Assembly (NCBI GenBank): GCA_022868165.1
Contig: JALHYA010000010.1
Span: forward strand, 375-64,374
Length of the DNA stretch: 64,000 bases
Direction: 5' to 3'
From: Patescibacteria group bacterium
GTDB lineage: Bacteria; Patescibacteriota; Microgenomatia; UBA8517
Of the stretch, positions 6,001 through 60,317 are shown piece by piece. Made by a program: the position numbers and the translations under genes. The notes below the pieces were generated by a model. That model saw nothing but the letters and a program-made list of their open reading frames with translations. It did not search any database and had not been told where the DNA came from. Position 1 is the stretch's first letter, and each line of letters starts with the position of its first letter.

Positions 6001-6512
6001 TTAATTTGAGTGATGGTTGAGGTAGCCCCAAGGTCAACTTTCCACCAGCCGACCTCACTATTAGTATGGCAAACATTAAGCAGGTCGCCATCGTTACAAA
6101 GATTGGCGCTTAAACCGCTATAAACACTGCTTTGGCTTGATGTTTTATTAAGAGCCAGTAAACTATTCCCTGTAGTTACACTGTTTGCTCCTATTGTGAG
6201 AACATCGTAATTTACTCCGTCTGCATAAGATCTTCCCGCGGCTATTATGTCTGTATTAATATTTTTGTTGGCTGAAATGGTTACCGACTCGTCAGCACCA
6301 TCTCCTGTGTCGAGATTGGCATACTTAAGTTTAAGTTGCCCGTTGGTAAGCTGGTAATTGGAAGAACTTCCGGTATTTATTTTTGAAAAGCCGGCAAACG
6401 AATCAGAAACCGTAGCAGCAAAAACAGGAGTTGGTCCCATACTCAAAGACACGGAAAACATTAAAAGTGCAAGTAGAATGGCTTTTTGAATTTTCTTTAT
6501 TCTTTTTTTCAT
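1..6512 (-). CDS. Giant secreted surface protein, partial. Starts with ATG at 6510-6512 and runs off the left edge with no stop. Signal peptide, discoidin (F5/8 type C)-like domain, Gly-rich repeat region, at least two LamG/concanavalin-A-like domains.
   Basis: Minus-strand frame open from ATG (plus 'cat' ~6510-6512) to position 1. N-term MKKRIKKIQKAILLALLMFSVSLSMG is signal-like. 'VGWWKVDLGATSTITQIKLWNR...YKIQVS' is a discoidin motif. 'FNGQIDDVRIYNYARTQAEI' (RC of ~1890-1960) and 'FDDVRIYNYARS' are LamG motifs. The ORF track omits it only because it lacks a stop in the window. The short ORFs in 1-6500 are antisense or alternate-frame artefacts of the Gly-rich GGN codons. Confidence 0.75.
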   Translation of the reverse strand, partial: MKKRIKKIQKAILLALLMFSVSLSMGPTPVFAATVSDSFAGFSKINTGSSSNYQLTNGQLKLKYANLDTGDGADESVTISANKNINTDIIAAGRSYADGVNYDVLTIGANSVTTGNSLLALNKTSSQSSVYSGLSANLCNDGDLLNVCHTNSEVGWWKVDLGATSTITQIKLWNRFTCCRDRVDNYKIQVSTTGAFAGEQVDVYTAVNTQAGRPTTMDITPTSGKYVRLLMTVSDYLNFTEMEVRGSTDPNGIVAGDEVMLISQQGDGTNNGNVGNYEFLTVQSVSGNTITFTSNVQKIYGATDSNSTLTGQRVTVQRVPNYVDVTVNSGYTLSAGSWNGGKGGILAFRARGAVTVAGTISTSGTAFRGGDTRGIDPKAGGEGGESFCGVGGHGSVDNTYAPENGAAGGGGSGNMWTVGGYGYCGGGGGAGGNAGVIANGSATKGGAGGGGGGVTGTGGGAGHGTFGYGGVCWGSPCTGVDGGTGTSGNGGSDSVYGNGGGGGGGGTYGVANLSNLMLGSGGGAGAYGVSPGIGGRGGGIVYVAADTVSVTGSIQSNGANGTGAQGGGGGSGGSVKLEAAASLTLGTNLVAATGGTASSNGGNGGVGRIATTYVTTTSGSANPAATSNQLTPTYVTSSTVQSTNVLTGLTGIDSIDTISYNLSSKPVGTTTATIQFSQNGTTGWYNSAGTDGTDDLTTGENNTINVHNLGWSGANFYYKIAFTGNGSFTPVLDDISLSYTVTGFTDSSTNGTDPYDNTSKINTGSSSGYQVAGSQVKINTFVPNAGFWKIDETSGVSVADSSGNGNNGTYNATSATGGVITYSGGYTIHTFTSSGRSAFFYSGADQSYTVPAGVTSITVKMWGGGGGGGNLGGWTYGFPGGGGGYTTGTLAVTPDQVLTVMVGAGGGNGSVSNPANSYGGGGLSCGGTDCRYGGQGGGRSAIRYSGVDYLTAGGGGGGGSSRAVNGQQGGAGGGSTGADGISYTQSCAGKGGGQASGGAGGSCATYPGTAGVQPTGGHPASPYSYGGGGGGGWYGGGAGGYQEANDMGGGGGGSGYIGGTGVTNATTTAGSGATPANATDTDNGRSGTGGPAATNGAPGKVIITPVQNVSFTCTSSGNVEVLAVAGGGGGGMDMGGGGGGGGVIYNATYACTANTPITVNVGAGGFGAPAGSANGNPTVHQFILSATNGQDSVFGTLTAVGGGRGGSSPNTYTPGSAGAAGGSGGGASGYNNQPVAPGTVTGGAGTGGQGYAGGNQGNQYYSGGGGGAGAVGASGNNQANGGAGFQSSINGTSLYWGGGGGGGGYSSCGGNGGAGGGGGGAVCTTTGGSGLNNGSPGGGGVINAQTNTPGGNAGANTGGGGGGGSHYNATNKGGDGGSGIVIVRYPTPTNIVAGKYVNARSFNGTTDYISAPQSTSLNIAGSITLEAWIKTAATNDYSGIIYKVSGNNGYQMSIHTGGGVRADFYNGTTYISPASSTNVKDNAWHHIAATYDGTTAKIYVDGNVGATAPTGSNFVTSTTATLIIGNDPNAASRFFNGQIDDVRIYNYARTQAEIQADMNNFTYLTSSTIISTNLLAGIQNISSINSFIYNLATLPGVTTATVAFSNDGTVWYNSSGAVGGTDNLTTGYNNTISLAPLGWTGGNFYYKVVFTGDGITTPTLDDITINYTVTTSNISSTWSSCKPILGGSFALTENCYFPNTLLSSPETNIDGADHGDITIKQYKTLTIKKDQQIVRNDDYSIIIETGGSIAINDLTQGSGGNVRDYSGTSNEGRANGAIVVAGKYSRARSFNGTSDYIAVPASSSLNLTGSLTLETWFKYNGKGSDWTRLIAKEVSPCADPWILWGLYMDNGVEGSQRFISQVATNTPGQGASTISTTTAQVGTWYHLAGVYDKAAQKVYIYINGQLEGTPGSFNMDLPTNTSDMNIGRAATCGGAYAKGVFDDVRIYNYARSVTQIAEDMNYAPNPTGNGSIAWWRFEDGGQIKETNLWVQDADGDGWIFGTETSQKAQNNTPGTGWVRRYLTIGSITGDGRDGNITFTTNTNLNTFINTAAGDTCAEAINYNISSLSTTTNIHGHTVTTATLSSTPATGCLSAGDIALMSNLQGISTNSTNTGNYEFMKIYSVSSNVVTFTTAKKKYYGNGASDDTNLGTATTNQRVMLQRVPQYGTVS

Positions 6513-7042
6513 CTTAAGGTGACTGTTGCGCTTTGAACGAGATTTTGTTCGTTTTTGACCTTCACCGTTACTCTGTAAATGTAGTTATACGAGTTTTCTA
6601 CTTTCCAAGTTCCTTTCCATTCCCCGTCGGTAGGAGTCCCGGATGATAATTGCAGGGGATAGGTGGTATCTTTGTAGTCGTCCGTGTGAAGAACAACTTC
6701 GACTCCCTTAATAGGACTTGTGTAGTTTGCCTTGACGATTATGGATTGGTTTGAACCCACTTCTGGATCTTCCGGGTCAAGTATCACCTCTGAAATTGTC
6801 GGAAGGCCTTGTACTCCTCCGCTAGTCCTATATAGCTGGGTTCCGTGGCCGATCGGGGGTGGGGTAGTGGTATAGGCGGACCAGATATTTTGTATAGGAG
6901 TTGGCGTGGGAAAGAGATTGGCGAGCTTGCCCGTGCGTAGCATATAGAAATAGACGCCCCCCAAAACCGCGGCGATAATGGCAACGATGATGAATATCCA
7001 GAAAATTAAAGGCGGCCGCTTTGTAGGCAGGTTGTTGTCCAT
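6509..7042 (-). CDS. Membrane-anchored protein: N-terminal TM helix plus an extracytoplasmic beta-rich domain.
   Basis: 177-aa ORF. Hydrophobic segment LIFWIFIIVAIIAAVLGGVYFYML. Its TGA stop overlaps the downstream ATG (ATGA), giving translational coupling to the partial giant gene. Confidence 0.6.
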   Translation of the reverse strand: MDNNLPTKRPPLIFWIFIIVAIIAAVLGGVYFYMLRTGKLANLFPTPTPIQNIWSAYTTTPPPIGHGTQLYRTSGGVQGLPTISEVILDPEDPEVGSNQSIIVKANYTSPIKGVEVVLHTDDYKDTTYPLQLSSGTPTDGEWKGTWKVENSYNYIYRVTVKVKNEQNLVQSATVTLR

Positions 7043-10900: not shown

Positions 10901-13900
10901 TCTTTCCATTCAAGCCCGGAAAGTCCTAAATCCGTTACGTCGGTAGTAGAGGGGGTAACTGAACCCCCGGAAAGGGCATTAAGAGGATTTAGGATGATAT
11001 TTCCGGTTGTACTGCCTCCAATAGTCAAGTCATTCATAAGAGTGCCCTGAATGCTTCTGGCGCCGCCATAGAAGGTCAGGTTGCCCGATACGGTGGCATT
11101 GCCTGCAACAGCAAGTTTTTCTACCGGAGAAGTTGTCCCGATGCCGACGCCGCCGCTTTGATTGATATTTAATATGTCATCTGTACCGTAATGACCGAGA
11201 GATAAATTGTTTAGGTAAGCTGTGGCATTAGGAGTATAGGCCATATAACCTGCGGAATTGGCAGCAATAGATTTACCAATCCATTGCGTTAGTCGATTAC
11301 CATTAGCAAGGGCAGTTTCAAAGACACCCATCGCTCGATGGTTGACATCAGTTGAAACTACAACTAATGGATTTCCCGGCGTCGCCGTCCCGATGCCGAC
11401 GTTGCCGGCGTTGGTGATGACGAATCTTGGAGTTCCGGCTGCTGAGGCCGTAAAGATATCTTGGGATTCGGTCTGGTTAAATATGGCCAGGGCTTTGCCG
11501 GTTGCCGAATAATCGTTTGTGACATAAAGCCTTGAGGTGGCAGCGGTAACGGTGGTTGAGCCGATTCCTACATAACCCGAAGCGTTAACATACATATCTT
11601 CACCGTCATTACCCTCGTCAAAAATAATCGTTTCGCCGGACCCCAAAGTCACAAATTTCAGGTTTACCGTGCTTGGAGTCATGATGGATAGCGTGGGGCT
11701 GGTGTAATCGTAGGTGAGACGGGTAGTGCCGTCAAAGGAAATGTGAGTTTGATTAGCAGAGCCTATCGTGAATCCGAAACAGTCGGCACCACCTGAACGG
11801 GTTGAGTTCCCACAGATATATTTAATGCCATCGGTAGCATAGGCAGAAAGAACCTCAATCATATCAGTATATGTTTCTCTCTCAACACTTACAGAAAATT
11901 CTCCGGCGGTATCCGCTCCGGCAGTTACATTTCTTAAGATAAAGCCTGCTCTTCCGGCCTCAACCAAACTGCTCGCATTATCCTCAAGGTAGGATGATGT
12001 GTAAGAACCGATGTTGGTGGCCGCAGTACCGCCGCTTGTGGAGCGAGTAATTCTGGCAAGCTCTATCTGTGTATTTGTTGAGGCATCGTCTTTTACGATA
12101 TGGAAACCCGCAAGCGGGGAGGCCGTACCAATACCCACACGGTTGTTAAGCGCATCAATCGAAAGGGTATTGGAATCGAAGTTAAGGGCATTGGCAGCAT
12201 TATTCAGGGTTACTCCTACTATTTGGGTAGAAAGGTCAATGGTGGCAGCGTTGATGTCAACAATACCGCTGCCGTTAAGGGGAGAAAGAGTGATATTTCC
12301 GGTCGATGTACCTCCTATGGTCAGATTTGCCATATTGGTTGTAGCCAGATTTCCTTCTCCAGTTAGGTAGGTAGCCACATTGGCAGTAGTGCCCGAAATA
12401 GATGCTGTTGGAGAATTTGTGGAGTCAACATTCATAAATGCGAACTTGGCCGTGTCGGTGGCCGTTCCGCCGATTAGTACATCAACAGTAGAATTCATTG
12501 GGTAGAGGATTCCATTTGCATCATCCTGCGTCCAGAAACTGCTGCCGCCTCCGCCTGTTCCGCAAGCTCCCCAGCTACCGGCTTGTTTACAACGCATTTC
12601 GCCTGAATCGGAGTTGTAATACATTGCACCATCGGGTGCGGAAACAGGGTCACCGGCAGTATTTTTTATATCTAAGGCTAAAAGGTCAGGAGTCCCCGAG
12701 CCCGCACCGTTTCCTATTTGAATAAGACCTGTTGTTGAGGTACCGAACGCTTGAAGGTAAATATTGCCTGTATCAACTCCTCCTAAAGTGAGGCTTTGGT
12801 TGGCGGTTGTTGCGAGATTGCCATCAGCGGTAAGAAAGGTTGCACCGGCCGCTCCCGCCGAAACAGAAGCGGTTGGAGTCCCTGTGCCCACCATATTTAT
12901 AAATGCAAATTTTGCGGAATCGGTCGAAGTCCCCCCCAATAAGACATCAACCGTCGAATTTTTGGGATACAGAATTCCATTTACATCGTCTTGATTCCAA
13001 AGATCGGTTGCGCCCCCGAGACAATTTCCTGAAGTGTCGCAAACCTGATTGTTGCTTTGGTAGATTGTCTTTCCCCAGATATTCCTGAATTCCAAGGACG
13101 CGGATGTGCCCAAATCGGTAACATCAGTTGTATTTGGCTTGACAGCTCCACCGGCTATGGCATTGAGCGGATTGACAACTATATCTCCGGTTGTATCTCC
13201 GCCGATAGTTAGAATAGCCATTAGAGTTGCCCGAATATTTCTTGCGCCTCCGTAGAAAGTCAGGTTGCCCGAAACAGTGGCATTGCCGGCCACATCCAGC
13301 TTTTCTACGGGAGACGTCGTTCCCACGCCTACGTTTCCACCAGGCATAAGAGCCAGGTTCTGCGAAGCCGCGGTAATTATTTGATTCGGCCCTGTGCCGG
13401 CGAAGGTAATTCCGGCTCCAATTCCAGTTAGATTTATGGCGGCAGTATTTGCATAGGAGTTTGTAAGTTGGTTGCTCATTGAGAGCGTTGTCACGCCCGA
13501 TACCGCCCCGGCTGTAGTGACATTTAGAGCAGTCGAGGTTACGGCAAATGTTCCCGTTGCGTTGCCAATGGTAGTTGTGGCTCCGGCGCCGGAAGATAGA
13601 GTGGTATTACCACTAGAGTCTAGGGTAGTGAAAGCGCCCGTCGAGCGAATAGTTGCTCCGATTGCGGTTGAGTTAATGCCCGTAGCTGTTGTATTAAAGT
13701 TGCCGGCAGTAAAGAGGATATCGTTTGCTCCAAAGGAAACGGATGAGGCTCCCAATCCGGATAGAGTCAGAGCTCCAGACGTTCCGGTTAAGTTCAAAGC
13801 TCCGGTAGTTAACGTCAGGCCGTTACTGGCTGTAAGGGTGCTAGAGAACCTTCCTGTTCCAGTAACATCCAGTTGAGTGCTGGGTGCAGCGTTATTTATG

Positions 13901-18839: not shown

Positions 18840-21344
18840 ATGGCCAAGAAAAGCAAATATGATCATAGGTCCATAGAGGCCAAATGGCAAGAGGCTTGGG
18901 CGGGCGAGGGGATATATACTCCCGACGTAAACAAAGCCAAGAACCCTTTCTATAATCTGTGGATGTTTCCATACCCTTCTGCGGAGGGTCTTCATGCCGG
19001 GCATGCCTATGCCTCAACCGGAAGCGACATCTACGGTAGATTTATGAGAATGCAGGGAAAAGATGTTTTCCAGCCTATTGGATATGATTCTTTCGGAATC
19101 CACTCTGAAAATTACGCATTAAAAGTAGGGGAGAATCCGGAAACAATCGTACCTAAAACCAGCAAAAACTACGAAAGACAACTTAAGAGCTTGGGGCACG
19201 GCTACGATTGGACCAGGACCGTGACCACATCCGATATTGATTATTATGTTTGGACACAGTGGCTTTTTGTTCAGCTTTTTAAGGCCGGGTTGGCTTACCG
19301 CAAGGAAGCAAAAGTAAACTGGTGTCCTTCCTGTAAAACCGTGTTGGCAGACGAGCAAGTTATAAACGGAAAATGTGAGAGGTGTTCTACCGAGGTTCAA
19401 AAAAAGGACCTTGCCCAATGGTTTTTCAGGATTACGGATTATGCGGACAAGCTTCTGGCAAACCTTGAAAAAATCGATTGGCCCGGGCACATTAAGCTGT
19501 CGCAGAAAAATTGGATAGGGAAAAGCGAGGGCGAGAGCATCCGTTTTAGGCTTGTTGGCTCCTCGGAGTATATAGAAGTTTTTACAACCAGGCCGGATAC
19601 GCTTTACGGAGCCACTTTTTTGGTACTTTCGCCCCATAGCGCTTGGGTTGGGAAAGTCACAACTAAAGAAAACATGGGTAAAGTATCGGAATATGTCAAA
19701 AACCATCAGCAATCAGCAATTAACAATCAGCAATCCAAGCTTAAAACAGGAGTATTTACGGGCGGCTACACTATAAATCCGGCGACCGGGGAAGAAATCC
19801 CGATTTGGGTTTCCGATTATGTCTTGGAAGGCTACGGTTCGGGCGCGATAATGGGCGTTCCCAGCCACGACGAGAGGGATAAGGAATTTGCTTTGACACA
19901 CAAATTAGAAGTGAGACAGATTGTTCCGGATGAGGGGTTGTGGGATATAGTCGAACAAAAGGATTGGGGCCGGCGTGCGGTTAGTTTTCACTTAAGGGAT
20001 TGGCTTATCTCCCGTCAGCGCTATTGGGGACCTCCTATACCTGCGATTTACTGTCCGAGATGCGCCAAAGAAGGGAAATCGTACTTTTCGGAAGCTAAGG
20101 GGCAAATTCATGCCGACCAAAACGATTGGGAGCATACCGGCTGGTATCCTGTGGATGAAAATGAGCTTCCGGTGAAACTGCCGCACATTGAAGATTATCG
20201 TCCGGTAGGAACCGGAAAGGGTCCACTGGCCAACCATCCGGAGTTTTACGAGACTGTTTGCCCCGCCTGCGGCAGTAAAGCCATGCGTGAGACCGATGTT
20301 TCCGATACATTTCTTGATAGTTCGTGGTATTTCCTGCGTTACCCTTCGGTTGGCACAGAGTCGAAGTTAGAAGATAGAAGTTTGATGCTAGATGAGGATG
20401 TTAGAAGTGGGAAAGTCGGAAATAGGGTTTCCAACTTCAAGCTTCAAAATCCAGATTCACACATCCAACTTCCAACTTCTAGCCTTCCTTGGGATCCTGA
20501 GATCACAAGGCGATGGCTCCCGGTTGATTTGTATTTCGGAGGAGCCGAGCATGCCGTTTTGCATCTTATGTATTCCCGGTTTATGACAATGGTGCTTCAT
20601 GACATTGGAAAGGTGGACTTTGAGGAGCCTTTTCCGCGATTCTTTGCGCATGGACTCATGATTAAAGACAGCGCAAAGATGAGTAAATCCAAAGGCAATG
20701 TAGTCAATCCGGATCCGTATATCGAGAAGTTCGGAGCTGATGCACTGCGACTATATTTGATGTTCATTGGACCCATGGACGGCAGCCCCGTCTTTAGGGA
20801 TACGGGTATGGAAGGGATGAAGAGATTTGTCAATAGGCTCTGGGAGCTTTTTACAACAAAACCGGCCGAAAAAAGTAATAAAGAAGCTACTATCAAAATG
20901 CATCAAACCATAAACAAAGTGACGGAAGATATACAAAATTTCAGATATAACGTGGCCATAGCGGCAATTATGGAGTATGTAAATGTTCTTAAGGAGAATG
21001 GGGCATCGGCCGAGGCTTTAAAAAATCTTGCACTAATGCTTGCCCCGTTTGCTCCGCATATGACCGAAGAAGTTTGGCATATGATGGGCAATACATCATC
21101 GATTCATAAGGCTTCCTGGCCTCAATTTGATCCCGATTTGGCCAGAGAGAAGAGGGTGGTCGTGGTTGTACAGATTAACGGAAAACTTCGCGCAGAGCTT
21201 GAAGTAAACTCTCTGCAAGGCCAAAATCAGGAGGAAATCGAGAAACTTTCAAAATCCGATCCCAACATAGTTAAATGGTTAGAGGGGAAGAAGGTCAAAA
21301 AGGCCGTTTTCGTGCCCGGGCGATTAATTAATTTTGTAATTTAG
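18840..21344 (+). CDS. leuS: Leucyl-tRNA synthetase.
   Basis: 834 aa. 'PYPSAEGLHAGHAYASTGSDIYGRFMRM' is the HIGH-region; 'KMSKSKGNVVNP' is KMSKS. Typical LeuS architecture. Confidence 0.95.
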   Translation: MAKKSKYDHRSIEAKWQEAWAGEGIYTPDVNKAKNPFYNLWMFPYPSAEGLHAGHAYASTGSDIYGRFMRMQGKDVFQPIGYDSFGIHSENYALKVGENPETIVPKTSKNYERQLKSLGHGYDWTRTVTTSDIDYYVWTQWLFVQLFKAGLAYRKEAKVNWCPSCKTVLADEQVINGKCERCSTEVQKKDLAQWFFRITDYADKLLANLEKIDWPGHIKLSQKNWIGKSEGESIRFRLVGSSEYIEVFTTRPDTLYGATFLVLSPHSAWVGKVTTKENMGKVSEYVKNHQQSAINNQQSKLKTGVFTGGYTINPATGEEIPIWVSDYVLEGYGSGAIMGVPSHDERDKEFALTHKLEVRQIVPDEGLWDIVEQKDWGRRAVSFHLRDWLISRQRYWGPPIPAIYCPRCAKEGKSYFSEAKGQIHADQNDWEHTGWYPVDENELPVKLPHIEDYRPVGTGKGPLANHPEFYETVCPACGSKAMRETDVSDTFLDSSWYFLRYPSVGTESKLEDRSLMLDEDVRSGKVGNRVSNFKLQNPDSHIQLPTSSLPWDPEITRRWLPVDLYFGGAEHAVLHLMYSRFMTMVLHDIGKVDFEEPFPRFFAHGLMIKDSAKMSKSKGNVVNPDPYIEKFGADALRLYLMFIGPMDGSPVFRDTGMEGMKRFVNRLWELFTTKPAEKSNKEATIKMHQTINKVTEDIQNFRYNVAIAAIMEYVNVLKENGASAEALKNLALMLAPFAPHMTEEVWHMMGNTSSIHKASWPQFDPDLAREKRVVVVVQINGKLRAELEVNSLQGQNQEEIEKLSKSDPNIVKWLEGKKVKKAVFVPGRLINFVI

Positions 21345-52074: not shown

Positions 52075-53046
52075 TTGCTGGGAAAAAATTCTTACACTAG
52101 TAATGGGAGAAGTAAGGCACAAAATAGGTGGCTAATATATTTATTGGTGCTTGATATTGCGGTATTAACCACCGTTTCTGTTCTATTCAAAAGATATCTA
52201 GACAATAGAAATATATCTCCGCCCGCATCTATTCTTCCCACGCCTACACCTATATCTTCGCCTCAAATTTCAGAGGGAACACAAAATACTAATTCTTTGG
52301 GAAACGTAATTCAAAATTCTCTTGGAGACGCCGATGTAGTATATGGGGTGGTAGTAAAAAATCTCAAGAGCTCCGAGGCCTCTTATATCAATGAGCATAG
52401 AAACTTCAACGCGGCAAGCCTCTACAAATTATGGGTGATGGCCACGGTTTACAAGCAGATTCAAGACGGCAAATTGAAAGAAGATGATATTTTGAGCGAA
52501 GATGTCAGTGTATTAAACAACATTTTTAATATCGATACCCAATTCGAAACTTCCACCGGGACGATTACGCTTACTGTTCGCGAGGCGTTAGATGAGATGA
52601 TTACCGTTTCAGACAATTATTCTGCACTTTTGCTTTCTGAAAAGATTGGTCTTTCCGCAATTTCATCCTTCTTGAACGAAAATGGATTTAACGAATCGAG
52701 TATAGGCTCTAGTGGAGGTTCGCCAACGACAACCGCATACGACACAGCGCTCTTTTTTGAAAAACTTTATAAAGGAGACCTCGCAAACGATAAATACACG
52801 AACGAGATGCTTGCTTTGTTAAAATCCCAGCAACTAAACGACGAAATACCCAAATACCTTCCACCCGAGGTAACCGTAGCCCACAAGACGGGGATGATAG
52901 ACAACTCTCTTCACGATGCGGGAATAGTATATTCGCCGAAAGGAGATTATATAATTGCAATCCTTTCCGAAGGTACCTCTTCAGAAGACTTTTCCGAGAA
53001 AATAGCCCAATTATCGAAAGTTGTTTACGATTACTTCAGCTCCTAG
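52075..53046 (+). CDS. Class A beta-lactamase-like serine hydrolase with an N-terminal TM/signal anchor.
   Basis: SxxK 'AASLYKLW', SDN 'VSDNYSA' and KTG 'AHKTGMIDN' occur in the canonical order. Confidence 0.75.
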   Translation: MLGKNSYTSNGRSKAQNRWLIYLLVLDIAVLTTVSVLFKRYLDNRNISPPASILPTPTPISSPQISEGTQNTNSLGNVIQNSLGDADVVYGVVVKNLKSSEASYINEHRNFNAASLYKLWVMATVYKQIQDGKLKEDDILSEDVSVLNNIFNIDTQFETSTGTITLTVREALDEMITVSDNYSALLLSEKIGLSAISSFLNENGFNESSIGSSGGSPTTTAYDTALFFEKLYKGDLANDKYTNEMLALLKSQQLNDEIPKYLPPEVTVAHKTGMIDNSLHDAGIVYSPKGDYIIAILSEGTSSEDFSEKIAQLSKVVYDYFSS

Positions 53047-53239
53047 GAGCATCGCCACCGCGCAGGTCTATCGTCTGGAGCACTTGGGGAGTAATTTCTT
53101 CTCCGGCCTTGAATTTCTCGACGCCAACCTTCATCCAGTCCGGAACAGAAGGGTCGGTCATATCGAAGTTATTCTCGGCAGCGTGCTCGATGCAATATCG
53201 GCGTGCCTGAAAAAATTTGTCTTCGAGTTCTACTCCCAT
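53036..53239 (-). CDS. Small hypothetical protein downstream of the CN hydrolase.
   Basis: 67-aa ORF only. Confidence 0.3.
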   Translation of the reverse strand: MGVELEDKFFQARRYCIEHAAENNFDMTDPSVPDWMKVGVEKFKAGEEITPQVLQTIDLRGGDAPRS

Positions 53240-53292
53240 TGTGGCGTTAGTATAGCAACGAAGAATTTGTCAATCAAGCAAGCCTTTGTATA

Positions 53293-54045
53293 TTAACTTC
53301 GAACAATTTTTACCAAATCAGTCCGCTCTTGTTGGAGATAGTGATTAGACGTGGACGATAAATCAATGTTTTCTGTGTGTACTTCTTCTTTTTGGGGTGT
53401 TGATTGCCAGACGATTTTTCCATAAGGGTCAATAATCATTGAGCACATTGTTTGTGGAGATGCTGCGTTATTTACGCTGCAAACCCAAAATTGATTTTCA
53501 AATGCGCGAGCAACTAATATTTGTTCCCATATCTTATCGCTTTCTTTTATGGCATTGTTTACATGAAAGATGACTTGGGCTCCGTTCTTTTTAAGAATCT
53601 TCCATTGTTCTGGAAAAATAAGCTCTCTGCACATTTGGATTCCAAAACTGACATTCTCTTCTTTGTAGGTTTTCAATTCGTTCCCGGCAGAAAAGTGATT
53701 TCTATCTGGAATACTCAAATTATTTTTTCGATAAATTATTTTTTGATTGGGGTTTATAAAGATAGTACAGTTATACCAGTTATTATCCAATTTTAAGGCT
53801 GAACCAACTAGACAATTTATATTTTTTTCCTTAGTTATTTTGTCAACTTTGTCGAGGGCTTGTTCAATAGCATTTGAGTTAAGTTGAGACAAAAAAGTTT
53901 CTTCTTCTGGATAGTATCCAGAAATCATTCCTTCCGGGAAAAGGACCCATTCATTAGAAGAAGAGTTTTGCAAAATCGAAATGACCTTGTCTAAATTAGT
54001 ATGAATATCCTTTGATACGGAGACTTGTGCAATGCGTACTTTCAC
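53293..54045 (-). CDS. Carbon-nitrogen hydrolase (nitrilase superfamily).
   Basis: 'WVLFPEGMISGY' supplies the Glu, and 'QMCRELIFPE' the Cys, of the E-K-C triad. Confidence 0.8.
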   Translation of the reverse strand: MKVRIAQVSVSKDIHTNLDKVISILQNSSSNEWVLFPEGMISGYYPEEETFLSQLNSNAIEQALDKVDKITKEKNINCLVGSALKLDNNWYNCTIFINPNQKIIYRKNNLSIPDRNHFSAGNELKTYKEENVSFGIQMCRELIFPEQWKILKKNGAQVIFHVNNAIKESDKIWEQILVARAFENQFWVCSVNNAASPQTMCSMIIDPYGKIVWQSTPQKEEVHTENIDLSSTSNHYLQQERTDLVKIVRS

Positions 54046-54126
54046 ACACAGATTATAGCAACTTTAGTAAAAAGGTCGACCAGAGTATGCAGGGGCTAGT
54101 AAACTATGTCAGGAACTTCTTTTTAT

Positions 54127-54456
54127 CTAATTGGACAAACTTTCAAGATATTTCTTTATTGCAACTGCGGTAATACCCCATGCCAGTGGAAGCCAGTAAG
54201 GAATACCAAAAATAGTTACTCCATGATAAGTCCATAAACCACTTTTTGAAACAATTGCTTCGCCTAGTGGACCAAAAACTGCAGCAACAATGAAGTAATA
54301 GATTTCCTTGTCTTTTTTCAGGAATGCACAATAAATAATGCTAATTAAAAGTAGTATGACAAAAAGATGAATAGGGTATTCCCAAAGATAAGAGATAGAT
54401 ACTATCCAGGTAATAAAGAATGTAACAAACAGAAGATGAACTTTTATCTTTTTCAT
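54127..54456 (-). CDS. Small membrane protein (3-4 TM).
   Basis: Hydrophobic 109-aa ORF in the low-GC region. Confidence 0.45.
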   Translation of the reverse strand: MKKIKVHLLFVTFFITWIVSISYLWEYPIHLFVILLLISIIYCAFLKKDKEIYYFIVAAVFGPLGEAIVSKSGLWTYHGVTIFGIPYWLPLAWGITAVAIKKYLESLSN

Positions 54457-54603
54457 CTAATTAAAGTATATCACTCGAGGCTATTTTGCAGGCATTAGTA
54501 CACGACCTTCGAACGATTTGGCATAAAATCAGTTCTTTCGAGCTGGGTAAAATGGCTCAGTTTATCAATCCTTCTGTGAACTTGGCTTATTGATACAATA
54601 TAC

Positions 54604-56205
54604 TTGATGAAACTATTCAATTTAGACTTAGTTAAGGGTGAGTTTTACTCTGAACTAAATCCTGAAATTACATTTGAAACGCTTACTCAAGGAGGTAGGC
54701 AGATTATTACTTGGAAGTGTTCTAAGGGCGATGATCATATTTGGGAAGCAAGCTTAAATCAGAGAACAAGCGGAAATAAACTAAGAGGTTGTCCAGTTTG
54801 TGCTGGGAAAAAAGTAGTAACAAGCAATTCTCTTTTAACAACTAATCCTGAAATCGCAAAGGAATGGAATTATGAAAGAAATAAAACCATTACTCCTTCA
54901 ACCATAACTTATGGTAGCAATAAGAAGGTGTGGTGGCAGTGCTTAGTTAATGAATCGCATGTTTGGTTAGCCTCACCAAAGCAAAGAGTTAACAATAATA
55001 CTTGTCCGCATTGCGACTCGTTACAGGTTAAATATCCAGATATTGCAAGAGAATGGCATCCGACTAAAAATAACTCGTTAAGACCGCAAGATATTGCTTC
55101 TTCATCCCATACCAAAGTTTGGTGGAAATGTGAGAAAGGAGTAGATCATGTGTGGCTATCATCGCCTAATACACGAGTTTCTAATAAAAGTGGTTGTCCC
55201 ATCTGTTCAGGATATAAAGTTGTAAAGAGTAATTGTTTAGCAATAACACATCCAGAACTGTCATCTCAGTGGGATTATGTTAAAAACGCGAATAATCTTA
55301 CTCCCGAAAATGTACATGCAGGTAGTCATAAAAAGGTGTGGTGGAGATGTCCTAAGGGGGATGATCATAATTGGGAATCTGTAGTTAAAACACGAGCAAA
55401 ACAAGGAGTTGGATGTCCGATCTGTAGTGGTCGAAAAGTAAGCCTAAGTAATTCATTGGCCACAAAAGAACCTGTCATTGCCTCTCTTTGGCATCCTACA
55501 AAGAATGAACCATTGAACGCTTACCAAGTAACTCCGTATTCAGGTCAATTGGTTTGGTGGAAGTGTCCAGAAGGTGAAGATCATGAGTGGAAAAGTACTG
55601 TTGCTAACCTTGTAAATGGAAGCTCTTGTCCTGTGTGCATGAATAGAAAAATTACAAAGAATAATAATCTTTTTGCTCTATTCCCTGATTTGAAAGATGA
55701 GTGGGATTTCGAAAAGAATAAGGATGTCAACCCAGTCACATTATCTGCTGGTAGCAGGATGAAGGTGTGGTGGGTTTGTAAACGAGATCCTGAACATATG
55801 TGGTTCTCTACAATCAAAGACAGAACAGCAAAAGAAAGTGGCTGTCCTTACTGCTCCATAAAACTCAATGTCTCAGAGCTGAAAATGTTAGGAATAATCA
55901 AACAACTATTTGAAGGAAAAGAAATACTATATAGATATAAACCAAAATGGCTAAACAGAATGGAACTGGATGTGTATGTCCCTGAACTGAAATTAGCTTT
56001 CGAATATCAAGGAGCTCAGCATATCAGGCCGATTGATTTCTTTGGAGGTGAGATGGTTTATATCGAACAGGTAAAAAGGGATCAATTAAAAAAGAATATC
56101 TGCCACGAAAGAAATGTAACGCTTCTATATTGTTACTTTGACGAAAAATTGAGCTTAGGTTTGATTAAATCTAAAATAGATGATTCAGGCATTACTCTTA
56201 TTTGA
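54604..56205 (+). CDS. Protein with about 8 tandem zinc-ribbon repeats (DUF4379-like treble-clef, 'WW.C..G..H.W.......G..CP.C') and a C-terminal Vsr/DUF559-like PD-(D/E)xK endonuclease domain.
   Basis: Repeats such as 'KVWWKCEKGVDHVWLSSPNTRVSNKSGCPICSG'. C-terminal 'MELDVYVPELKLAFEYQGAQH' matches the DUF559 core (D..lP...laiE.DG.qH). Confidence 0.65.
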   Translation: MMKLFNLDLVKGEFYSELNPEITFETLTQGGRQIITWKCSKGDDHIWEASLNQRTSGNKLRGCPVCAGKKVVTSNSLLTTNPEIAKEWNYERNKTITPSTITYGSNKKVWWQCLVNESHVWLASPKQRVNNNTCPHCDSLQVKYPDIAREWHPTKNNSLRPQDIASSSHTKVWWKCEKGVDHVWLSSPNTRVSNKSGCPICSGYKVVKSNCLAITHPELSSQWDYVKNANNLTPENVHAGSHKKVWWRCPKGDDHNWESVVKTRAKQGVGCPICSGRKVSLSNSLATKEPVIASLWHPTKNEPLNAYQVTPYSGQLVWWKCPEGEDHEWKSTVANLVNGSSCPVCMNRKITKNNNLFALFPDLKDEWDFEKNKDVNPVTLSAGSRMKVWWVCKRDPEHMWFSTIKDRTAKESGCPYCSIKLNVSELKMLGIIKQLFEGKEILYRYKPKWLNRMELDVYVPELKLAFEYQGAQHIRPIDFFGGEMVYIEQVKRDQLKKNICHERNVTLLYCYFDEKLSLGLIKSKIDDSGITLI

Positions 56206-58375
56206 GGTAATGACATTTTTTATATTTTTTTCCACTTCCACAATAGCATGGGTCATTTCTACCAATCTTCCTGGAGATCATTTGTCCAGGTTTAATCATC
56301 ACATCAGCAAGTTTTTGGAGTTTTGGGTCTTCATGCCATGGTTCATTAGAATACACGACTGAATCGATTATATTGGGACTTTCGGCATAGCTACCTAATC
56401 CTAACCACTCATCAGCTTTTGTAATGTACTTCCTGGAAACTGAATAAGCCATAATATGCTCATGCAGACCCTTCCTTCTCTCATATTCCACAACATATGT
56501 GATACCTCCTTTACCATGATCCAAAGGCATTGCCATGGAATGTGGGCCATGGTCACTTAAAGCTTTTGTTTTAGCAGACTCCATCATTTTGATAAGAGTA
56601 TCTGCTGTCTTGCTGGAAAGGGTATATAAAAAGAAAATTGCATCAGTTAATCCTGGCTCTTTTGAAGCTTTGATCTGCGTTATGAGCTTAGTAAAGCTTT
56701 CATTCTTCCATTTTTGTCTGATCTTACTTTTTTTCTTATCTTCCTCTGATCCATACCTTTGTCTCATGACATCATCATCAATTACTTGTCCAAAATCTTG
56801 AACAAGAGCTATATGGGTAGCGTCAGAAGCAGGGTCGATATACAGTTTTTGATCTAAGTGATAGCCAAGACTTGTAATTTCAGTACCACCCATAATTTTA
56901 TCAGCAAGTTTTACTCTCTGATTAACGTAATAGAGAAAATCATATGGGTCTGGTAAATACGTAGTTAGTAAATCCAAATCAAATATGTTCATCGCAATTG
57001 GCCATGGATCACTTTCTTTTCTTTCTAAAAAAGCGTGCACCTGCATATAAAGAGCAGGGTAATTGTCAGTTGTAACGGAAACGATATAAGCTTCGTTGAT
57101 AGACTCGTGTAGCTTGATTTCATTGCCATTTGCATCGATAAACACCGCATCACGAGCTAAAATGTGCTGTTTTGATTCAAGGCCTTGTTCATAGGCCTCT
57201 TGTACAGCCTTTCGAAAGTCAATTCCTAATTGGTTGAGATCACCTTTTCGAGATAGAAAAGTCATTTTTTTGGATTTTGCTTGGACTGCAATTGCTTTGT
57301 TACCAAGTAGAACCAGGACATCAACATCTGTAAAGACTAATCCTTTCTTTTTTATACCTTCACCTTTTTGTCTTTGGATTTTTGCACCTTTATAGACATT
57401 AGATTCACCAAAAACTCGTTTAAGTTTTTGAAAAGCTACTTCTTCGGTATATTCACCTCTATGCTTCTGTGCTGTTGGAAAGTATTTTTCATCAAGCTCC
57501 TTTACCCAATAAAAAGGGCTTTCATCGATTGCCCTGGATAAGTCAAAGGAAACAGGAAGCAAATAGTTTGTATCTGAAATCCTTATTAGTGGCTTAGTTT
57601 CTATCTCATTAGAATCAGATGGGGCTCTAAACGATTTGTTGCTTTTTCCTGGTACAACTGAGAAACGAGTAGCAATTTTTTGAGCAACGGTCTTATCGAA
57701 ACCTATCTCATCAGTGTTAACGGTAAATATACTCAAAACCCACTCACAAAAAGATCGAAAATCACTTTTTTCTGGAGGTTCAGGTCGTATCCTTTCAGCA
57801 GATTCTTTTACTGTTTTAGAAAACAAAACCGCATCTTCAATTGAAAAACCAAGATGCTCGATAATCCACTCCTTATCTTTGGCGTATCTTACTGGTGCAG
57901 ATTCCCAATACTGGAAGTCGTACGCACCTGAATCTCCATAAAATACAGATTCCACAATTGCTTCTGATGATGTGAATATACCCGGACGGGGAGGTATCGG
58001 TAGGCCTTGCTCCTTACGTTTCATTGTTTTTTCAATCATAGAGCTGAAAGCTGTTAGGCTATAATAATCATGCACTTTTTGGAGTAGAGGATATGTCTGA
58101 TCAATGTACTTTTTAGCAGTTTCTTCGTCTGGTACAGTTTCCAAATCTAAGGGTCTTTTGATTACGAGACCAAAAAGTAGTCCTACTTCTTGGTAACTTA
58201 CTCTGTCCCACCAATTTACATTTAGGTATTGGTCTAATGGAATGAATAAGTCATGAAGCGTAATTATCAAAAGTGAGTACAAATAACCAGGTTTACTCAC
58301 AAGCTCTTCCAGCTCTTTAAGTGTCGTTTCTAAGTTAGGTATTTTCCCTGCATCATCTTTATCTTTTTTTGCCAT
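56198..58375 (-). CDS. 725-aa protein with a central NERD/PD-(D/E)xK-like segment (tentative) and a C-terminal SEC-C zinc-binding motif.
   Basis: C-terminal 'RNDPCYCGSGKKYKKCH'. Central 'GEYTEEVAFQKLKRVFGE...LVFTDVDVLVLLGNKAIAVQAKSKK' resembles the NERD layout. Confidence 0.55.
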   Translation of the reverse strand: MAKKDKDDAGKIPNLETTLKELEELVSKPGYLYSLLIITLHDLFIPLDQYLNVNWWDRVSYQEVGLLFGLVIKRPLDLETVPDEETAKKYIDQTYPLLQKVHDYYSLTAFSSMIEKTMKRKEQGLPIPPRPGIFTSSEAIVESVFYGDSGAYDFQYWESAPVRYAKDKEWIIEHLGFSIEDAVLFSKTVKESAERIRPEPPEKSDFRSFCEWVLSIFTVNTDEIGFDKTVAQKIATRFSVVPGKSNKSFRAPSDSNEIETKPLIRISDTNYLLPVSFDLSRAIDESPFYWVKELDEKYFPTAQKHRGEYTEEVAFQKLKRVFGESNVYKGAKIQRQKGEGIKKKGLVFTDVDVLVLLGNKAIAVQAKSKKMTFLSRKGDLNQLGIDFRKAVQEAYEQGLESKQHILARDAVFIDANGNEIKLHESINEAYIVSVTTDNYPALYMQVHAFLERKESDPWPIAMNIFDLDLLTTYLPDPYDFLYYVNQRVKLADKIMGGTEITSLGYHLDQKLYIDPASDATHIALVQDFGQVIDDDVMRQRYGSEEDKKKSKIRQKWKNESFTKLITQIKASKEPGLTDAIFFLYTLSSKTADTLIKMMESAKTKALSDHGPHSMAMPLDHGKGGITYVVEYERRKGLHEHIMAYSVSRKYITKADEWLGLGSYAESPNIIDSVVYSNEPWHEDPKLQKLADVMIKPGQMISRKIGRNDPCYCGSGKKYKKCHYLK

Positions 58376-58780
58376 ATTATCAAGCTAATTTGTGCTTCTA
58401 TTTTATCACAAGAGTTGAGTAAGAGATGACCCATAGTTGCTTTTTCAAGGACGATTTAGTAGTATTTTATTAGGCTAAACATTTAGCTTTTTCGACAGCT
58501 TTTGTCGAAACGGAAATAGGTTTCGTATACATACGAACCAGAGCTGGTAAACTCTGAAATAGCCAAGCACAAGACTGCTGATAGAGCTTATAAGCAGGAG
58601 ATTGAAGGGTTTTTGACCTTCTGCAATCTAGTTCCGAAGCTATTTGCAAGTTCGAGACCGGCCTTACAAAGGGAGTTACTTAGATTCGTTGTCTCGAACG
58701 TTTCTGTGAGGGATAAAAAGGTCGAATATACGCTTAAAACACCCTTTGACCTAGTAGCCAAGTACTCTCAAAGTGAGAAT

Positions 58781-58854
58781 TGGCAGGGGTGGTAGGAATC
58801 GAACCTACGTTCGAGGTTTTGGAGACCTCCGGCCTACCACTGACCGACACCCCT
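58781..58854 (-). tRNA. tRNA-Trp (anticodon CCA), CCA encoded.
   Basis: RC folds as AGGGGTG-TC-GGTC-AGTGGTA-GGCC-G-GAGGT-CTCCAAA-ACCTC-GAAC-GTAGG-TTCGATT-CCTAC-CACCCCT-G-CCA. Closely parallels E. coli tRNA-Trp. Confidence 0.8.
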
Positions 58855-58945
58855 AAGTTTATACTGATTTTCTCTTGAATCTCCCTTGTATTTTATCCTA
58901 AGTGGCTAGTAAGCTCAAATATAGCTTGTATGATATATCATTATA

Positions 58946-59350
58946 TCATCCAAGGTTTTGGAGCGTTCGGAGGATATCTTTCCTGGGGGAAACATCTAGA
59001 ATTTTCTTAACGGCTTCCTTTAAAGCCTTCAAATTTTGCCACTTAGCGAGCTTGGAAATAACAAAACTTTTGTCGCTTGCCGGTATTTCGAGAAGTTGTA
59101 GTTTGATTCTGGATACCGTTTGTCTGGTTGTGTTTGTAAATTCGGCAATTTTATCTTGATTTACCCCTTCAGATAAGAGAAGCATGATTATTGCCCTTTT
59201 TCGAAGCATTTCCTGCTCGGTTTTTGTTAGAAGTGTAGAGAAAGTTTTTATGACTTTTTGACGCTCCAGGCTGGTAAAAATTGTCAATAATGCTTCTTGA
59301 AAAAGCTCGTTATTTTTAGAAGAAAGTTTTTTTCTGGAAACGTGAGTCAT
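58946..59350 (-). CDS. Small helix-turn-helix DNA-binding protein, TrpR/YerC-like or sigma-region-4-like.
   Basis: 'SEGVNQDKIAEFTNTTRQTVSRIKLQLLE' is a C-terminal HTH. Confidence 0.55.
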   Translation of the reverse strand: MTHVSRKKLSSKNNELFQEALLTIFTSLERQKVIKTFSTLLTKTEQEMLRKRAIIMLLLSEGVNQDKIAEFTNTTRQTVSRIKLQLLEIPASDKSFVISKLAKWQNLKALKEAVKKILDVSPRKDILRTLQNLG

Positions 59351-60105: not shown

Positions 60106-60317
60106 TGGGAACATACGAATTATACCAAAAAATGACCCTGCTTCGGAGGTTGGGCTAAATTTTCCTGGAAAATCCAGGTGGGTAAGCTGCTTCCAAGCCC
60201 AAGGGCTTGGAAGACTCCGCCTTCCCTAAATCAGTAAGTGGTCAGGAAAGTTTAACCTTCAACCCCCTCAATCAGGGTCAATTCTATTTTAGCAAACTAG
60301 TCAAGCCCAAGTAAGGC

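Follow-up and report, generated by a model that had tools for sequence, protein, structure and literature searches.

The window analyzed here is a stretch of 64,000 nt from a metagenome-assembled contig of a Patescibacteria bacterium (candidate phyla radiation, CPR); all coordinates are window positions unless another contig is named. Beside its tRNA-Trp gene lies a block of low GC content (53,290-58,780), which is very probably the decayed, immobilized remnant of integrative elements that use a large serine recombinase at the extreme 3' end of tRNA-Trp in Microgenomates-like CPR bacteria. The features of the block are listed below; B and P denote the host and element arms of an attachment (att) site, O its core, and GC3 the GC content at third codon positions.

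53277-53322, forward strand: decayed copy of the P' arm, a scar of the recombinase tail; 36 of 46 bases equal the P' consensus, nhmmer E-value 0.013
53293-54045, reverse strand: carbon-nitrogen (CN) hydrolase, 250 amino acids (aa); Pfam CN_hydrolase E-value 2.3e-29, GC 0.348, GC3 0.32
54075-54101, forward strand: old attL; native B arm GTCGACCAGAGTAT, core GCAGG(GG), decayed P' (CTAGTA...)
54127-54456, reverse strand: membrane protein of 109 aa with at least three hydrophobic segments, between two att scars; GC3 0.26
54486-54593, forward strand: attL of the youngest element; core GCAGG at 54,488-54,492, then the P' arm; nhmmer E-value 7.6e-23
54604-56205, forward strand: 533-aa DUF4379-Vsr protein (532 aa counting from the ATG at 54,607)
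56198-58375, reverse strand: 725-aa NERD-like/SEC-C protein; SEC-C zinc knuckle at residues 706-723, E-value 5.5e-9
58535-58795, forward strand: pseudogene remnant of a large serine recombinase, found by tblastn against the intact recombinase of contig L005
58781-58854, reverse strand: tRNA-Trp(cca), found by ARAGORN and Rfam (61.7 bits)

An initial annotation of this DNA had described an island visibly richer in AT than its flanks, and the composition agrees. The GC content of 53,290-58,780 is 0.368 versus 0.454 for the remaining window, and the block is the GC minimum among all 5.5-kb windows (mean 0.445, standard deviation 0.027); elsewhere, non-overlapping windows have values of 0.433 to 0.501. 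The tetranucleotide distance of the block lies more than 1.5 standard deviations above the mean, and GC3 is 0.26-0.32 in four block genes versus 0.41-0.61 in flanking genes. The same annotation had placed the 3' end of tRNA-Trp about 400 bp from the island and facing it, which is also the case, with 406 bp to the start of the 725-aa gene.

This 406-bp gap is occupied by the recombinase remnant. It comprises 87 codons, corresponding to residues 408-494 of about 516, and in a tblastn search it matches the intact recombinase of L005 with 67% identity over 90 aa (E-value 5e-33). The remnant ends in ...SQSENWQGW*; its final codons are antisense to the 3' end of tRNA-Trp, and the stop codon lies inside the tRNA. 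With the L005 enzyme as query, tblastn aligned residues 408-497 and no other recombinase piece in the whole window. The catalytic domain is absent, and the full set of N-terminal resolvase domain, recombinase domain, and zinc ribbon of a functional serine recombinase is not present; the fragment is therefore a 5'-truncated pseudogene. The junction alignment with L005 places the crossover core GCAGG at 58,783-58,787, and attR, like the core, overlaps the extreme 3' end of the tRNA gene. On this side, the DNA of the window and that of L005 cease to be homologous at ...GAGAATTG/GCAGGGG, the slash marking where the homology ends. A direct repeat of the tRNA-Trp 3' end, suggested earlier as something to look for at the left boundary, did not turn up: there is no 21-nt copy with up to three mismatches, which is consistent with the short core of a serine recombinase.

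At the left end, homology between the window and L005 DNA begins exactly at TGCAGGCATTAGTA (window 54,487; L005 9,878). The P' arm that follows the core is about 110 bp long and represents the detached last ~36 codons of the recombinase gene (35 codons plus stop), with the peptide LQALVHDLRTIWHKISSFELGKMAQFINPSVNLAY*. This stretch resembles a conserved micro open reading frame (micro-ORF) of 35-38 codons that starts with MQALVxELRTIWHKI, and the variation at its third codon positions is that of coding DNA: the Thr10 codon, for instance, is ACG, ACA, ACT, or ACC. A HMMER scan of 1.84 billion representatives with the 35-aa peptide of the window matched seven small proteins. One of them, P0246 (144 aa, contig L043), carries the peptide (MQALV...LRTLWHK) as an in-frame continuation of a serine recombinase C-terminal region, and its junction, ...LILKDKNLGFSFKRPFDILLQPAIRSD-MQALVYNLRTLWHK..., is of the attP type (P-O-P'). 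Joined through the core (xxG CAG Gxx) with the attL of the same element, the recombinase ends of the window and of L005 likewise give in-frame fusions, and the reconstituted attP-form tail of the L005 recombinase contains ENWQALVYELRTLWHK. The junction in P0246 shows that the micro-ORF is the last ~36 codons of the recombinase gene in its unintegrated form. The attP site is therefore located within the 3' end of the recombinase ORF, and integration swaps the C-terminal tail of the enzyme: the original tail is left behind at attL, and the recombinase gains a short end antisense to the tRNA.

Other interpretations of this repeat, which is conserved over 60-110 bp, were dropped; it was considered as a promoter or operator, a miniature inverted-repeat transposable element, an integron-like attC site, an RNA, or an independent micro-protein, and it is coding, the detached 3' end of the recombinase gene. 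Rfam has no match at the P' repeat. Directly after the stop codon of the recombinase tail, L043 carries an ORF of more than 563 aa (3016-4704, forward strand) without a Pfam match, at the position that the DUF4379 gene has in the window and in L005.

L005 is a 107-kb contig of another CPR bacterium that harbors a sister element. Its intact 516-aa recombinase, with Resolvase, Recombinase, and Zn_ribbon_recom domains, abuts tRNA-Trp, and the backbone common to the window and L005 comprises L33, tRNA-Trp, tRNA-Thr/Tyr/Thr, an M50 protease, L28, and fmt. At the left end of the element, about 9 kb away, an orthologue of the DUF4379 protein adjoins the same P' sequence. The cargo between the two ends differs from that of the window and consists of a SMODS nucleotidyltransferase with a partner, a helix-turn-helix (HTH) repressor, and small ORFs. 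The DUF4379 proteins of the window and L005 are 76% identical and the recombinase tails 67%, versus 41-53% for the backbone proteins; the element therefore moved horizontally between distant hosts.

Three details of L005 may be recorded here. The SMODS nucleotidyltransferase is of the type found in cyclic-oligonucleotide-based antiphage signaling systems (CBASS), and its 286-aa partner belongs to no known family (11602-13330). A third, partly deleted copy of the recombinase-tail scar is present at 13563-13616, which suggests a composite make-up for the L005 element as well. The recombinase end is separated from tRNA-Trp by a 72-bp insert (19047-19117) that starts like a tRNA 3' end (TGGCAGGGCTGCACAGATTCGAACTGTGAC) and ends in a flank resembling the B arm (GTCGACCAGGATATGC); an earlier host or integration may have left it behind.

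The native attB flank, GTTCGATGATrGTTCATCCAGrGTwTGCAGGGG, runs straight into tRNA-Trp in contigs L015, L016, L017, L025, and L030. By eye, the left arm of the L005 attL is about 90% identical to the native flank in L017, the likeness expected of a B-O-P' hybrid. For the window element, attL and attR are both mapped (GCAGG at 54,488 and 58,783), the B arm is native in L015-L017, and P-O-P' is found in L043. Unoccupied attB sites beside tRNA-Trp were seen in more distant contigs only. A synteny check that used the beta-lactamase-like neighbor of the island found two Daviesbacteria loci with 52-54% identity and no other common gene.

The P' scar was also sought in metagenome contigs by an exact-pattern scan with TGCAGGCATTAGTNNNCGANCTTC. 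Eighteen contigs or loci contain it, with one or two scars each. tRNA-Trp lies 0.4-3.4 kb to the right of the scar, on the opposite strand and in the same relative orientation, in all seven contigs that contain tRNA-Trp. The interval between scar and tRNA holds variable genes on either strand, among them, by eye, toxin-antitoxin-like pairs and GNAT-, ASCH-, GIY-YIG-, and methyltransferase-like proteins. The recombinase, the DUF4379 gene, and the SEC-C gene are absent from all of these loci, which are cargo-only remnants like those known from the tRNA-linked islands of Prochlorococcus. A second CPR element of the same geometry is present in contig L002, where the recombinase stop codon lies 34 nt inside tRNA-Gln and the element carries a homologue of the 725-aa protein with 59% identity. 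Scans of viral contigs returned neither the P' motif nor a match to the L005 recombinase.

To the left of the youngest attL, two further scars appear to record older integrations. The initial annotation had pointed to a weak match to the tRNA-Trp 3' end at 54,087-54,100 as a possible attachment-site remnant. As a copy of the tRNA end alone, this match is not significant: a 14-mer of the tRNA end has 7 matches in the window at up to three mismatches versus 3.6 expected, and 54,087-54,100 is not among them. As native flank plus core, the site stands. The sequence CCAGAGTATGCAGG at 54,080-54,093 equals the conserved native 3' flank and core of tRNA-Trp in related contigs, and the native-flank pattern CCAGRGTWTGCAGG has this position as its single match in the window, with 0.06 expected by chance. 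In other loci, CCAGRGTWTGCAGG occurs only at tRNA-Trp (directly abutting it in L015, L016, L017, and L030) or at the L005 attL. The stretch 54,075-54,101 is thus a genuine old attL made up of B arm, core, and decayed element arm.

The second scar, at 53277-53322, has a local alignment score of 40 versus a window background of 12.2 +/- 2.7 and is the second-best locus on both strands. It marks the exact point on the left where GC falls, and the 3' end of the CN hydrolase gene runs into it; this gene is probably cargo of an older island layer. The 109-aa membrane protein has no Pfam or PADLOC match. Both this small membrane protein and the CN hydrolase had been named as parts of the island at the outset, correctly so. 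The block as a whole looks like three scar-delimited segments: one with the CN hydrolase, one with the 109-aa membrane protein, and one with the DUF4379 gene, the SEC-C gene, and the recombinase remnant.

The following history would account for these features. The youngest unit spans 54,486-58,787; its right end (attR) is formed by the last 87 recombinase codons fused to the tRNA 3' end, and its left end (attL) by the GCAGG core and the ~110 bp that were once the last ~36 codons of the recombinase gene. With the first ~407 recombinase codons gone, the unit is unable to move by itself. Older layers, namely that of the membrane-protein gene and probably that of the CN hydrolase, would lie to the left with one att scar each. 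Several observations weigh against such a history. The scars are not arranged as simple stacking would predict: the one that retains the native B arm (54,075) has a P' scar on each side instead of being leftmost. An empty site in a close relative was not found, and the genome scan gave no syntenic relative. The right end of L005 retains an intact attB-like flank together with the 72-bp tRNA-like fragment. Finally, there are no intact recombinase, replication, or structural genes in the block, and any mobility is therefore historical only.

The two large genes of the youngest unit were analyzed separately. The 533-aa protein matches Pfam DUF4379 (E-value 6e-103) and contains six treble-clef zinc-ribbon units (W.C..H.W..CP.C) of about 60 aa each, where about eight had been counted initially. 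The Vsr-like nuclease that had been proposed for its C-terminal end fared better. This domain has no Pfam match to DUF559 (PF04480) or Vsr at an E-value of up to 10, and sequence and profile searches of the PDB were also empty; a fold search was therefore used. The domain is predicted to be a PD-(D/E)xK-type nuclease of the Vsr/EDxHD fold with conserved acidic and His residues. A word-index homologue search with the C-terminal 124 aa alone returned nothing, a result limited by the index. Some longer paralogues of the protein contain PF04480 or PF18741. Invariant in 33 orthologues are E453, D455, E466, Y467, Q468, G469, Q471, H472, R491, D492, and K495. The best profile matches are to PHROG families annotated as endonuclease or homing endonuclease (E-values 8e-41 to 5e-9).

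CapR-, DUF4379-, or DUF723-like modules followed by an EDxHD/Vsr domain characterize a class of homing endonucleases with thousands of unannotated members (PMC12350094, 2025). The 533-aa protein is a new member of this known architecture, and the class fits it better than a defense system does; we infer that the gene is a free-standing, homing-endonuclease-like gene. The six zinc ribbons would most likely provide modular nucleic-acid recognition for the catalytic domain. Described EDxHD/Vsr homing endonucleases include I-Bth0305I (PDB 3r3p) and those of phage group II introns, the latter with CapR/DUF4379/DUF723 modules (PMC12350094); unlike these, the 533-aa gene is free-standing at the edge of an integrative element and encodes six modules.

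A possible but less likely reading is that the protein is not a selfish homing endonuclease but a defense nuclease, or a factor for integration or transfer of the element. The gene stands free at the edges of elements, outside any intron, intein, or conserved gene. In three independent types of element it is the outermost accessory gene; in two Bacteroidota genomes, the orthologue is found at the outer edge of tyrosine-integrase-type (integrase/excisionase-like) elements, and in both the window and L005 the DUF4379 gene would be directly downstream of the recombinase tail when read in the attP form. However, the architecture and fold are those of the EDxHD/Vsr homing endonucleases, to which the phage endonuclease and homing endonuclease PHROGs also point, and orthologues with 56-76% identity are scattered over at least two phyla (they occur in Spirochaetia and Bacteroidota), as expected for a selfish gene.

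The 725-aa protein consists of an N-terminal helical region, a PD-(D/E)xK core (residues ~300-470), a C-terminal region that is helical and alpha/beta, and the SEC-C motif. Candidate motif residues of the core are E285, D350/D352, and Q365-x-K367. The family has at least 294 homologues across phyla, mostly full-length (~700-780 aa) and with 34-65% identity; D352 and Q365-x-K367-S-K are invariant in it, and E285 and D350 are nearly so. Pfam NERD (PF08378) matches 43 of 54 family members at an E-value of up to 0.1 (best 1.7e-5), and a homologue on a plasmid is labeled 'NERD domain-containing protein' by the Prokaryotic Genome Annotation Pipeline (PGAP). The predicted model of the protein (pLDDT 88.9, pTM 0.87) matches Can2, SduA, NucC, and McrC, and it assigns the core a NERD-like/FokI-like PD-(D/E)xK fold with a (D/E/Q)xK signature. 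This signature is accepted for NERD defense nucleases (bioRxiv 10.1101/2024.01.29.577857), and NERD nucleases that carry it have a demonstrated role in defense. Searches of Pfam, NCBIfam, PADLOC, and the PDB with the 725-aa sequence returned the SEC-C motif only, and outside this motif no PDB chain has detectable sequence similarity to the protein. Of the NERD-like segment and terminal SEC-C motif that had been assigned to this protein, the SEC-C motif is present and the PD-(D/E)xK core is that of a family matching NERD; the window protein itself has no NERD match.

Most members of the family are located in defense islands, restriction-modification (R-M) loci, plasmids, and integrative elements. 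One homologue is located beside a resolvase (L001). Another lies in a defense island with type I R-M, ParE, DUF4062, and LmuB_C (Lamassu-like; L007), and a third among HigB, M78, DUF4411, and terminase debris, in toxin-antitoxin and prophage surroundings (L036). In L037-L039 the homologue sits between the body of hsdR and a detached T1RH-like_C fragment. Homologues are also found on 33 plasmids, next to integrase, PDDEXK, PLD, and AAA genes, and on three IMG/VR contigs. No conserved partner gene recurs across the homologue neighborhoods, and no methyltransferase is present in the island or conserved beside the homologues. In L037-L039 (4993-10466), the hsdR body measures 1,002 aa (stop at 8001) and the detached T1RH-like_C is an 88-aa ORF; it looks as if the homologue gene had been inserted into hsdR.

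The 725-aa protein is most likely a single-protein nuclease that restricts invading nucleic acid, with its large non-catalytic regions acting as a sensor. Lacking a partner methyltransferase, it would work on its own against phages or plasmids, and cleavage would be permitted once the non-catalytic regions detect foreign or modified nucleic acid or a protein of the invader. This putative defense role is deduced from the gene neighborhoods of the homologues and from the fold. Several results speak against it. The window protein itself has no Pfam NERD match at an E-value of up to 0.1. PADLOC-DB v2 detects no defense system; its E2 and PDC-S12 models match just the 20-residue SEC-C tail, and the four other island proteins have no match. 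Two SEC-C homologues (L008 and L010) stand alone among housekeeping genes. A search of 50,697 phage genomes found no homologue of the SEC-C family, and there was no significant fold match in BFVD. The initial proposal of a defense or selfish-element island is thus borne out for the selfish element, by the recombinase remnant, attL and attR, and the sister in L005; the PADLOC check that it had recommended matched no known defense system.

We consider it somewhat unlikely that the 725-aa protein is instead a housekeeping or element-maintenance nuclease (for repair, recombination, or addiction) that rides on mobile DNA and is not immune in function. The lone homologues among housekeeping genes and the restriction of the PADLOC match to the SEC-C tail would fit such a role, as would the strong full-length conservation of some 700 aa across phyla. 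In contrast, the distribution is patchy, and close homologues are found in different mobile elements, inside type I R-M loci or defense islands, or on plasmids; the gene is also absent from the sister element in L005.

That the two large genes form one two-component defense system, made up of the zinc-ribbon/Vsr nuclease and the NERD/SEC-C protein, is very improbable. They are adjacent, overlap tail to tail by 8 bp, and are alike in composition (GC3 0.29-0.30). However, they are convergent, which excludes an operon, and the DUF4379 gene is in none of the SEC-C homologue neighborhoods examined (eight chromosomal loci and three plasmids), just as a SEC-C homologue is in none of three DUF4379 orthologue neighborhoods. 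The DUF4379 gene of L005 is in the same position but has other cargo next to it. The two genes are independent cargo, not a pair. The idea that the entire block is native AT-rich DNA of fast-evolving genes, adjacent to the tRNA by coincidence, can practically be set aside: local GC variation does occur in CPR genomes, and the window has a second compositional outlier at 1.2-6.2 kb (the gene of a probable giant surface protein), but a recombinase remnant is fused to the tRNA, attL and attR are mapped, a sister element occupies the same tRNA, and element identity is 67-76% against a backbone identity of 41-53%.

Decayed integrative islands at tRNA genes are already known as a kind of thing. The tycheposons of Prochlorococcus are tRNA-linked islands that arise through repeated integration and decay (bioRxiv 10.1101/2020.12.28.424599). 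Like the window element, they show site-specific integration at tRNA 3' ends, newcomers that push older elements inward, fragmented integrases and att scars, and defense-type cargo. They differ in host, which here is a CPR bacterium, and in recombinase, as large serine recombinases are a small minority among tycheposons. Moreover, the scar described here consists of 110 bp from the recombinase ORF and not of a partial copy of the tRNA, and no replication module was seen in the block. An attP inside an element's own gene also has precedents: the integrases of SSV-type fuselloviruses are split by integration, and mycobacteriophages have integration-dependent immunity. In these systems, as here, integration cuts an ORF of the element, and the free and integrated forms encode different versions of a protein. 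Unlike the SSV integrases, the enzyme here is a serine and not a tyrosine recombinase, and only its last ~36 codons are exchanged, their place being taken by a few codons that are antisense to the tRNA.

Defense effectors that combine a NERD or PD-(D/E)xK domain with others in one stand-alone protein have been described, namely ZwsA (bioRxiv 10.64898/2026.04.06.716636) and Upx, a single-protein defense nuclease with two nuclease domains (PMC13099982, PMC13601566). The 725-aa protein shares a PD-(D/E)xK core, the (D/E/Q)xK signature, and association with defense loci with HEC-02B (bioRxiv 10.1101/2024.01.29.577857) and ZwsA; like ZwsA, it would be a multidomain single-protein effector. It differs from both in the invariant Q (not E) of its motif and in its SEC-C tail. 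Compared by description only, HEC-02B requires an ABC ATPase partner, whereas the 725-aa family has no conserved partner, and ZwsA has VHS, DUF647, and S4 domains and cuts phage RNA, whereas the 725-aa family has other flanking domains. Unlike Upx, the 725-aa protein has a single nuclease domain, and it does not show sequence homology to Upx. Unlike the type IIS enzymes FokI and BspD6I, it is not adjoined by a methyltransferase gene.

What is new at this locus is a CPR serine-recombinase element with attP mapped within the ORF of its recombinase, the scars that this leaves near tRNA-Trp in other contigs, and the NERD-like/SEC-C family. The mobile elements and immunity of the CPR are poorly charted, and the locus supplies a fully mapped att system (attB, attP, attL, attR) for a CPR serine-recombinase element. 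The recombinase-tail scar is a simple sequence marker of past integrations beside tRNA-Trp in many metagenomic genomes. Since the ~300-member family of the 725-aa protein recurs in defense islands, R-M loci, plasmids, and integrative elements, it is a concrete candidate for a role in defense. The six-zinc-ribbon/Vsr nuclease resembles a natural, modular 'zinc-finger nuclease', and its specificity could be of practical interest. A broader reading, offered tentatively and not expected to hold in every part, is that the ~720-aa NERD-like/SEC-C family might be a new and widespread single-gene anti-phage or anti-plasmid nuclease (modification-dependent or trigger-activated), that serine-recombinase elements at tRNA-Trp might be a main route of gene acquisition in the CPR that builds cassette-like variable regions, with recombinase-tail scars as their marks, and that the tail exchange might act as a built-in switch of recombinase activity or direction.

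Several other features of the window were noted. Directly left of the island edge lies a 67-aa ORF (53036-53239, reverse strand) of unusually high GC (0.52); it has no family match, and part of it coincides with the 3' end of the beta-lactamase-like gene. In the interval from tRNA-Trp to the L33 gene, a gene of low GC (0.375; GC3 0.36) at 58946-59350 on the reverse strand encodes a 134-aa HTH protein with weak Trp_repressor, HTH_23, and small-terminase-like matches. It may be a separate insertion 5' of tRNA-Trp, because the spacing between tRNA-Trp and L33 is only about 80 bp in L005. Homology to the 134-aa gene next to the recombinase of L001 was considered and rejected, as the two have no similarity. 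A candidate 6S RNA (60131-60281, reverse strand) adjoins the tRNA-Thr/Tyr/Thr cluster and scores 43.5 bits in Rfam (E-value 2e-6), just under the gathering score of 46.4. At the other end of the window, a giant ORF (3-6584, reverse strand) runs past the left window end; its product exceeds 2,194 aa and has a signal peptide, its GC is high (0.50-0.54), it is the sole other tetranucleotide outlier in the window, and it probably encodes a CPR giant surface protein.

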